The notes beneath the pieces are model-generated. The model was not told the DNA's origin. It was given only the letters and a program-made list of their open reading frames with translations, and made no database searches. Positions 27,068 to 27,101 of a DNA stretch of 64,000 nt are shown piece after piece. The position numbers were made by a program, and so were the translations under genes. Position 1 is the stretch's first letter. Each line of letters opens with the position of its first letter. Source of the DNA: an uncultured Christensenella sp. Lineage in GTDB: Bacteria > Bacillota > Clostridia > Christensenellales > UBA1242. The stretch covers positions 21,222 through 85,221 of the forward strand of contig CAJUBT010000005.1 of the NCBI GenBank assembly GCA_910584815.1, written 5' to 3'.

Positions 27068-27101
27068 CTATTCGCAAAACTTGAGTTTTGCGAATAGTTT
27101 A
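27068..27101. repeat. Left boundary hairpin (att-like); also terminator-shaped on the + strand
   Basis: 13-bp perfect stem CTATTCGCAAAAC / GTTTTGCGAATAG with loop TTGA, then TTTATTTATT. It can be read as 11-6-11 (TATTCGCAAAA CTTGAG TTTTGCGAATA). The 17-mer 27085-27101 is identical to 34312-34328. Confidence 0.6.

Follow-up and report, generated by a model that had tools for sequence, protein, structure and literature searches.

An inovirus-like prophage without an integrase at the predicted dif site of an uncultured Clostridia host, and the proposed two-site mimic of dif that it carries

How does a phage that encodes no recombinase of its own come to reside in a bacterial chromosome, and what is the palindrome in which it begins? 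Both questions are raised by a 64,000-nucleotide stretch of DNA from an uncultured Christensenella sp. (contig CAJUBT010000005.1, positions 21,222 to 85,221), hereafter the window, which holds an inovirus-like prophage of 7,227 bp. Searches of its ten largest open reading frames, the remaining ones being shorter than 85 amino acids, recovered no integrase or transposase family, in agreement with the original prediction, made from the letters of the window, that the element is free of a recombinase. Having no recombinase of its own, the element fits the class of IMEX, mobile elements that integrate via the host Xer recombinase. Based on comparison with related hosts and phages (the loci compared carry labels beginning with L), we propose as the likely answer that an integrase-less inovirus-like phage integrated at the host dif by way of the host Xer, using a folded single-strand mimic of dif formed by two phage-borne sites, P1 and P2.

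The left boundary of the prophage reads CTATTCGCAAAAC-TTGA-GTTTTGCGAATAG at 27068-27097, which is the perfect palindrome of the original prediction, with a stem of 15 bp rather than the 13 bp given there (AACTATTCGCAAAAC / GTTTTGCGAATAGTT, 27066-27099). It divides, as had been proposed, in the 11-6-11 manner of a dif site (TATTCGCAAAA at 27069-27079, CTTGAG at 27080-27085, TTTTGCGAATA at 27086-27096), and so offers the two inverted arms and the short centre, within the range of about 28-34 bp, that characterize such sites. Second copies of its parts were also correctly placed at the right end: the 17-mer GTTTTGCGAATAGTTTA recurs at 34312-34328, with a start-to-start distance of 7,227 bp, and the 10-mer ATTCGCAAAA is found at 34294-34303. 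The right copy as a whole is an inverted repeat around a 9-nt centre (AATTCGCAAAA-GTAACTCCG-TTTTGCGAATA, 34293-34323), and a third, degenerate dif-like site, absent from the original prediction, lies at 34185-34212 (AGTTCGCAAAA-CTATCT-TTTTGCTAAGT). With up to three mismatches allowed, the 11-6-11 pattern occurs once in the window as against never in 100 dinucleotide-preserving shuffles, and the exact 13-mer arm is restricted to three places within the window. The element and the sites at its ends are the following.

27086..34312, - strand: inovirus-like prophage, 7,227 bp, with all genes but one on the - strand
27066..27099, no strand: complete dif (attL), predicted to consist of a host arm (27069-27079), the host-type centre CTTGAG and a phage-supplied arm (27086-27096)
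34185..34212, no strand: P2 (site X), degenerate phage-borne dif-like site with equivalents in L110, L122, L117, L118 and L123
34213..34292, no strand: spacer of 80 nt between P2 and the hybrid site, largely self-complementary by folding prediction
34293..34323, no strand: attR, predicted hybrid of P1 and host dif, with a phage arm (34293-34303), the 9-nt phage centre GTAACTCCG (34304-34312) and a host arm (34313-34323)

That the palindrome belongs to the host is indicated by its association with a tyrosine recombinase gene encoded to the left of the prophage, which also provides the presumed catalyst of the integration.

22969..24015, - strand: XerS-like tyrosine recombinase, 348 amino acids, presumed catalyst (Pfam Phage_integrase, E 5e-32)

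Orthologues of this recombinase with 53-74% identity are present in at least 80 species-level genomes of Clostridia, commonly beside LexA; in the closest relatives the gene adjoins SerRS, mobile genes are not associated with it, and no paralogue is encoded in the 64-kb window. We scanned 10 kb on either side of the recombinase gene in 80 species-level loci, allowing up to four arm mismatches, and recovered the 11-6-11 motif in 50 of them (51 sites in 1.33 Mb, as against 0-2 in shuffles). At each of the 50 site-bearing loci the motif lies upstream of the recombinase gene, at a median distance of 466 bp; in the window the distance is about 3 kb. The cross-species consensus, TAAC-TATTCGCAAAA-N6-TTTTnCGAATA-GTT, has conserved arms and a variable centre, and the CTTGAG centre of attL resembles the CTTGTC and CTTGTG centres of related hosts. 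Conservation of the arms together with a free centre is what would be expected of a site bound by a protein such as a recombinase, unlike that of an RNA hairpin. Judged by this comparison, 27066-27099 is the chromosomal dif of the low-GC, uncultured Clostridia host, and together with the XerS-like recombinase it makes up what appears to be a conserved xer-dif module at the replication terminus, at which that recombinase is presumed to resolve chromosome dimers. Because the arms are palindromic, the 348-residue recombinase probably acts alone.

Within the family, the top NCBIfam match of the recombinase is XerS (NF003462), with 198.6 bits where the cut-off is 267; lower scores are obtained for XerC, XerA and XerD, and the annotation in the public record is only “tyrosine-type recombinase/integrase”. 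The original prediction had named this protein XerC/D; its placement in the Xer family stands, and the assignment to XerC or XerD gives way to a closest affinity with XerS, to whose linkage with difSL the linkage seen here corresponds. In streptococci and lactococci XerS is encoded beside difSL as a module of the terminus, and the site has an 11-bp central region (PMC5357621). The window system shares with it the single recombinase of about 350 residues encoded beside its own site, as well as arms of the TTC..AAAA / TTTT..GAA type. However, difSL is an asymmetric site of 31 bp, whereas that of the window is a symmetric 11-6-11 (14-6-14) palindrome, with 6 nt rather than an 11-bp central region between its A and T tracts. 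As a separate observation, in seven species (L026, L030, L035, L039, L058, L064 and L082) we could recognize no more than a half-site, such as AACTATTCGCAAAA / AACTATGCGCAAAA-TGTCAA..., about 80 bp upstream of xer, which suggests lineages with an asymmetric, difSL-like site.

Nucleotide composition and the gene order of an unoccupied relative are consistent with the same identification, and involve these features of the flanks.

39700..39800, no strand: maximum of the cumulative GC skew computed with the prophage removed, a terminus signal (peak at window position 39754)
34440..35120, - strand: YgjP-like metallopeptidase gene of the host flank (PF01863, E 6.5e-42)
25717..26613, + strand: CD-NTase_C / nucleotidyltransferase-like gene of the host flank, syntenic with xer and dif

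Left of dif the GC skew has a value of +0.15, and from the 40-kb position onward one of -0.15; the cumulative curve rises to the site and later falls. Thus, when dif is located by GC skew, as the original prediction had advised, the palindrome is found next to the switch, at 5.4 kb, and it is the single full site in the 64 kb examined; the generic repeat that was to have spoken against the idea is accordingly not what the window contains. The empty locus, whose reconstruction had likewise been advised, is represented at the cross-species level by the related L011, which has the order ABC-PadR-YgjP-(ACTATTCGCAAAA-CTTGTC-TTTTGCGAATAGTTTA)-CDNT-SerRS-Xer-LexA, where CDNT is the CD-NTase-like gene. 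This is the gene order of the window with one perfect palindrome and no prophage, its SerRS being 85% and its Xer 69% identical to those of the window. The YgjP gene stands directly beside a single dif in L011 and in seven more species (L012, L015, L016, L021, L054, L073 and L081).

The provenance of the remaining sites is revealed by relatives of the phage. Two of these, L110 and L122, are circular, as both of their contigs (7,613 and 7,791 bp) show a terminal overlap of 141 bp, and their pI-like proteins are respectively 74% and 59% identical to that of the prophage. In both, the interval from the Rep gene to the first gene holds P1 and P2, and a perfect 6-nt-centred site is absent: P1 combines a perfect left arm with a centre of 9 or 10 nt, and P2 follows 53 or 85 nt downstream, with a left arm that is degenerate, a centre of 6 or 7 nt and a good right arm. 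Over the seven modules that we recovered, P1 has a left arm that agrees with the consensus, a centre of 9-11 nt and a right arm that is near the consensus in most; in P2 the left arm is degenerate and the right arm near the consensus, its centre measures 6-7 nt, the gap between the two sites 14-85 nt, and the whole module about 90-160 nt. The DNA of the window from the Rep stop to the attL arm is homologous to that of L110 from the Rep stop to P1. Consequently, the right arm of attL (27086-27096) and all DNA to its right are of phage origin, site X corresponds to P2, what is left of P1 makes up the left arm and 9-nt centre of attR, and only the right arm of attR is contributed by the host, whose YgjP-like gene continues to the right of it. 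By this comparison the 17-mer repeated at the flanks reflects the imitation of a dif arm by the phage. We rejected a target-site duplication, as the left copy runs on into DNA homologous to the free phage, and also the notion that site X is a relic of an older insertion, as P2 is present in the free circular relatives too.

In the orientation of the phage, the order at the junctions is host arm, phage centre of 9-11 nt, phage arm, spacer, P2, genes, Rep, phage arm, 6-nt host centre and host arm. This order is common to four inovirus prophages in different hosts, namely that of the window, L117, L118/L119 and L123, and the attR layout of the window is repeated in L117, L118, L123 and L101. The last of these is a Microviridae prophage (3570-8550) that lies in another host beside a LexA-Xer-CDNT-dif locus and is recognized by its capsid protein (PF02305, E 2e-116) and a Rep of the PF23343 family; it has the junction order of the inovirus prophages and a two-site foldback with a P1 centre of 10 nt and only 14 nt between the sites. 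The element of the window thus resembles IMEX in having no recombinase, in its position at the host dif, with dif on one side and a dif-like site on the other, and in having relatives whose free form bears a dif mimic. These comparisons show integration at dif and a phage origin of the two-site module. The junctions of the five prophages are consistent with one exchange, of the (+), coding strand, made at the 5' border of the centre. Furthermore, the 5' end of the P1 centre equals the host centre over 3-6 nt in L117 (GTTG), L118 (GAC) and L123 (CACAAC), and the P1 centres of the free genomes begin with GACAA and GACAG, as do the common host centres GACAAG and GACAGC. In L117 the centre agrees with the other strand of dif, and this prophage is also turned the other way with respect to xer, which would be possible if one recombinase binds both palindromic arms.

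When the modules were folded as single-stranded DNA, all seven were predicted to adopt a common forked-hairpin topology, in which the left arm of P1 pairs with the right arm of P2 and the right arm of P1 with the left arm of P2, the centres form an internal loop and the stem runs on into the spacer. For the - strand of the window module (34181-34328) the minimum free energy is -26.2 kcal/mol with a z-score of -6.1; the other z-scores are -7.7 (L101), -6.7 (L110), -7.7 (L117), -6.5 (L118), -3.5 (L123) and -5.6 (L122), and for each of the seven none of 200 shuffles was as stable. Outside the arms the stem varies in sequence between the phages and keeps its complementarity (TTTTGG/CCAAAA; GTTACATA/TATGTAAC). 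Within the arms too, changes come in pairs, a G to T accompanying a C to A in L117 and an A to G accompanying a T to C in L118.

This architecture recalls CTXphi, in which two sites separated by 90 bp, attP1 (12-bp centre) and attP2 (5-7-bp centre), fold into an attP(+) of about 150 nt; a single strand is exchanged by XerC, and the intermediate is resolved by replication, which completes the integration (PMC4246890). Tyrosine recombinases cleave at the 5' border of the centre (PMC4246890). By analogy, we propose that in the packaged (+) strand P1 would pair with P2 to give a forked hairpin, the two duplex arms of which would imitate dif around an unpaired centre. The host Xer would then exchange the (+) strand of the phage only, cutting it at the 5' edge of the P1 centre and joining it to the equivalent strand of dif, and replication would turn this intermediate into the prophage. 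The expected outcome would be a complete dif at one end (27069-27096), and at the other an intact P2 followed by a hybrid site (34293-34323), as is observed. Such a regenerated dif could go on resolving chromosome dimers, and the prophage is probably locked in, because the centres of the flanking sites differ in length. Xer catalysis, the use of single-stranded DNA, the exchange of one strand and irreversibility are the parts of this scheme that we infer. The host route for an IMEX of filamentous type, which the original prediction had offered as one of two, is in this way supported more strongly than was proposed there.

Several observations weigh against this proposal. The host is uncultured, and for the species and phage of the window neither an empty site nor a free attP was found, both being known from relatives. 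The recombinase fails the XerS equivalog cut-off (198.6 against 267 bits), and XerS uses a reported 11-bp central region, so that the division into arms and centre adopted here may be offset. The peak of the cumulative GC skew lies 5.4 kb off dif and not at it. In the window and in L101 the centres of phage and host share only 1 nt beside the presumed cut, fewer than in the other prophages. The two-site design is not universal, in that a second Microviridae prophage at a Clostridia dif, L032 (66-5331), apparently has a single 6-nt-centred mimic. Finally, the foldback could instead be a minus-strand origin or a packaging signal, and the junctions fit a single-strand exchange on double-stranded P1 equally well.

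The last points lead to the alternative that the duplex replicative form integrates via the host Xer at dif, after the manner of VGJphi or EC6098, the duplex P1 being the mimic and P2 with its foldback serving another role. We regard this as unlikely, while recognizing that double-stranded dif mimics are the commoner IMEX design, that L032 seemingly manages with one 6-nt-centred mimic, that exchange of one strand on a duplex followed by replication would leave identical junctions, and that intergenic hairpins of filamentous phages serve replication and packaging. What tells against it is that the centre of the split site, P1, is in every case 3-5 nt longer than that of the host, which on a duplex would place the two recombinase monomers out of register. 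Moreover, P2 is made of dif half-sites and is always positioned to pair with P1, the paired changes in P1 and P2 keep their base pairing, and the two-site design is shared by the unrelated microvirus L101 with its gap of 14 nt. Direction of the insertion by the phage's own Rep, which would nick the hairpin and insert the phage by a rolling-circle or transposition-like reaction, was the other route of the original prediction. An HUH Rep is indeed encoded in the element, and HUH enzymes of some transposons act on hairpin DNA. Nevertheless, we find this route very improbable: the target is a host sequence kept beside xer in 50 species regardless of phages, a microvirus occupies the same kind of target in the same layout, and the junctions fall at the border of arm and centre, as for a tyrosine recombinase. 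The phage family itself provides controls. Six relatives (L111-L116) have an rve-type DDE transposase (16259-17296 in L111) and occupy at least three host sites, and L120 and L121 have a tyrosine integrase of their own with two helix-turn-helix regulators (4878-5915 in L120). These relatives encode a homologous Rep, yet are located away from dif; L111, L114, L120 and L121 contain no dif-like site, and in L112 and L113 the sole matches are weak and long-centred. The dif-like module is thereby linked with integration at dif, and the case for a role of Rep in directing the insertion is weakened.

Two further explanations would deprive the palindrome of its role as dif. It was predicted that the hairpin doubles as a terminator and that the site before insertion was a bidirectional terminator between convergent genes. 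The underlying observations are all present: the scan for a terminator consensus returns 15 pairs, a loop of 4 and a T-rich tail for 27066-27099, the tail following the left copy on the + strand; a run of six T adjoins the right copy on the - strand (CCAAAAAATTCGC on the + strand); and the flanking genes converge (25717-26613 on the + strand, 34440-35120 on the - strand). As the primary nature of the palindrome, however, an intrinsic, possibly bidirectional terminator or a generic REP-like repeat, which the phage ends would merely resemble, is scarcely credible. There is one full copy in the 64 kb, and the sequence of the arms, beyond their pairing, is conserved over Xer proteins 53-74% identical, while the centre varies. 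Rather than following the end of a gene, the site is found immediately upstream of xer in most species; in the window it lies 455 nt beyond the stop at 26613, and the T-rich tail, from 27100, is phage DNA. Termination may therefore be incidental at most, and it finds no support as the reason for the hairpin's sequence or as the state before insertion. The remaining explanation, that a conserved integrated element has this recombinase as its integrase and the palindrome as its attachment site, would draw on the public annotation and on the XerS score below the cut-off. To this too we accord very little probability, for the gene stands beside LexA in most of the 80 loci and beside SerRS in the closest relatives without mobile genes, the site lies at the GC-skew switch, and the best family matches are all to Xer proteins (XerS, XerC, XerA and XerD).

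Returning to the folded single-strand mimic, its counterparts in other systems place it closest to CTXphi. In the papers covered, integration at dif through folded single strands is known from CTXphi and a few of its relatives, in Gammaproteobacteria with XerC/XerD. The module of the window shares with CTXphi, and also with RS1, YpfPhi and CUS-1Phi, an integrase-less filamentous phage at dif and a pair of neighbouring dif-like sites of which one has an over-long centre, and like CTXphi is predicted to form a forked hairpin in the (+) strand; its dimensions (centres of 9-11 and 6-7 nt, a gap of 14-85 nt) differ from the 12 and 5-7 bp and the 90 bp of CTXphi. Unlike in CTXphi, the host is a Clostridia bacterium of Gram-positive type, and an XerS-like recombinase that probably acts alone on near-perfect palindromic arms would take the place of the XerC/XerD pair. 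In addition, insertion occurs in either orientation, apparently set by homology of the centre (L117 as against the window, L118 and L123), and the design extends to a Microviridae prophage. Integrase-less phages with single-stranded DNA have been reported at dif before, in gokushovirus EC6098 and in Bacteroidetes microvirus proviruses, which lie between the host dif and a phage dif-motif of greater variability and depend on XerC/XerD (PMC7062461), and VGJphi is an IMEX with a double-stranded dif mimic (PMC4246890). These use a single duplex mimic reversibly, whereas the phage of the window and L101 have a two-site foldback with an over-long split site; L032 resembles the EC6098 type.

Among systems with a single recombinase, the Legionella element LME-1 is an IMEX on XerL, where the arms of dif are long uninterrupted inverted repeats, and its attachment site revealed a dif that had gone unrecognised (PMC9765430). 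It differs from the present case in being plasmid-like, with one dif mimic, and not a phage with single-stranded DNA, and in its recombinase family and host phylum. XerH/difH of Helicobacter and Campylobacter is comparable in that a single long Xer acts on a near-palindromic site; XerH is only a distant match to the recombinase of the window (PDB 5jjv, E 5.9e-7), weaker than XerA and XerD. In the literature, of which our coverage is incomplete so that absence is not proof, we found no report of this xer-dif module of Clostridia, of an IMEX at an XerS-type site or difSL, or of integration at dif by inoviruses of Gram-positive bacteria. Surveys of inoviruses class such ends as “non-canonical att sites” (PMC6813254).

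To the more general proposition, that chromosome dimers in a large clade of uncultured gut Clostridia are resolved by an undescribed module of an XerS-like recombinase and a palindromic dif, that at least two unrelated lineages of phages with single-stranded DNA, one inovirus-like and one a microvirus, have converged on a folded mimic in the style of CTXphi so as to lysogenise these hosts, that one recombinase would serve either strand and that the few bases at the 5' end of the phage centre would set host specificity and the orientation of the insertion, we give an even chance. Either strand of dif would be open to exchange if a single recombinase acts on both palindromic arms. If the proposal is true, foldback integration at dif is a recurrent solution for integrase-less phages with single-stranded DNA and not a peculiarity of Vibrio. 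It would furnish the candidate dif and Xer of a widespread uncultured gut lineage, and the system could be rebuilt in E. coli, as that of XerS was. A perfect 11-6-11 site accompanied by a long-centred hybrid and P2 would serve as a rule for recognizing such prophages in metagenomes. Finally, the phage family has three alternative integration modules, namely the dif mimic, the DDE transposase and the tyrosine integrase, which constitute a natural experiment in module exchange.

The gene content of the prophage is as follows.

27231..27908, - strand: HUH rolling-circle Rep with the HYH motif in GREHYHAVV (PF23343 REP_ORF2-G2P, a weak match of 18.6 bits)
28330..28998, + strand: DUF2726 gene, the sole + strand gene of the prophage (PF10881, E 3e-15)
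L110 5663-6280, L111 14057-14815, L117 14434-15069 and L118 13359-13745, antisense: DUF2726 genes of relatives in a conserved position
28995..30716, - strand: candidate adsorption protein (pIII-like) of 573 amino acids, from its N-terminal signal-like and C-terminal hydrophobic segments and the position of its gene
31353..31592, - strand: candidate major coat protein of 79 amino acids, hydrophobic with a basic C-terminus, from sequence features only
32255..33256, - strand: pI/Zot-like morphogenesis ATPase with the Walker A motif GGIGSGKS and transmembrane segments

The pI-like protein has 41 homologues and an AlphaFold model with a pLDDT of 74, for which Foldseek returned as best named matches “Zonular occludens toxin [Inoviridae sp.]” (modest, with E 4e-6 to 8e-5 and TM-scores of 0.29-0.50); it returned no Pfam Zot match, and a scan of IMG/VR with it found nothing. 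PF23343 is recorded for homologues of the Rep in L111, L112, L118, L120 and L123. Profile searches gave no family match for the 573-residue protein, and a gene for the 79-residue one is called at the corresponding place in L110. Several small hydrophobic proteins are encoded in the prophage. With its Zot-type ATPase, HUH Rep, genes in one direction, small hydrophobic proteins and the small circular genome of its relatives, the element is an inovirus-like prophage, known here from its genes and predicted folds. No similarity, in DNA or protein, was detected among 50,697 records of phages deposited in GenBank, and a PHROGs search of the prophage proteins gave no informative match. Throughout the phage family the DUF2726 gene is antisense to all other genes, with the large adsorption-like gene on one side and Rep on the other; its product may be a regulator, or the gene a moron expressed in lysogeny.

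With respect to the host, the window is of about 26% GC, and an alternative genetic code was rejected, as this AT-rich genome reads through with table 11. The genes to the left encode LexA, the tyrosine recombinase, SerRS and the CD-NTase-like protein, and those to the right the YgjP-like peptidase, a PadR-family protein and an ABC transporter. We sought the empty site in the host species itself, where attB would read as the CTTGAG centre followed by ...GTTTAAATAG, and the free attP as the GTAACTCCG centre followed by ...GTTTATTTATT. Look-ups of exact proteins, for both flanking genes and the first phage gene, returned only the same prophage or broken contigs, and a scan of JGI metagenomes with the shared 17-mer returned 13 loci, all from other species and none like the window. 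The same prophage at the same site was present in other samples (SRR33518548, SRR21764045, ERR3199681, ERR3199551 and DRR745527). As to the broken contigs, L004 ends inside the hairpin, L138, from another species with an Xer 83% identical, ends exactly at AACTATTCGCAAAAC, and L137 and L139 end short of the site. Two independent assemblies, L007 and L009 (GCA_948783005.1; Logan ERR3199551), were both observed to end at window position 34187, inside P2. This shared break implies that in those samples another sequence stands left of GTTCGCAAAAC; a simple deletion product of dif and P2 does not fit it. The contig breaks hint at heterogeneity at dif and prove nothing.

A few observations concern the other loci. 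L123 has an additional P2-like site (13801-13828) between Rep and dif, and three additional genes at 3717-6181 (281, 275 and 269 amino acids) between YgjP and the hybrid P1; these additions may represent another element at that dif, or a remnant. The contig end of L032 repeats 76 nt, which may represent a tandem copy or an assembly join. Two contigs of tailed phages from IMG/VR, L096 (389-416) and L099 (6004-6031), with terminase, portal and capsid genes, contain a perfect 11-6-11 site, together with a 7-nt-centred degenerate site 5.6 kb from the perfect one.

The CD-NTase-like gene is syntenic with xer and dif in L010, L011, L032, L101, L117, L118 and L123, and matches the family “anti-phage nucleotidyltransferase” (NF053871) with 49 bits, far under the cut-off; it may be a defence gene parked beside a hotspot of phage integration. 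Just 3' of it we observed a repeated motif, (A)GTACTATGCAA(A), at 26693-26705 and 26723-26735, which is kept in relatives (L011 at about 7330-7400, L138 at about 290-300).

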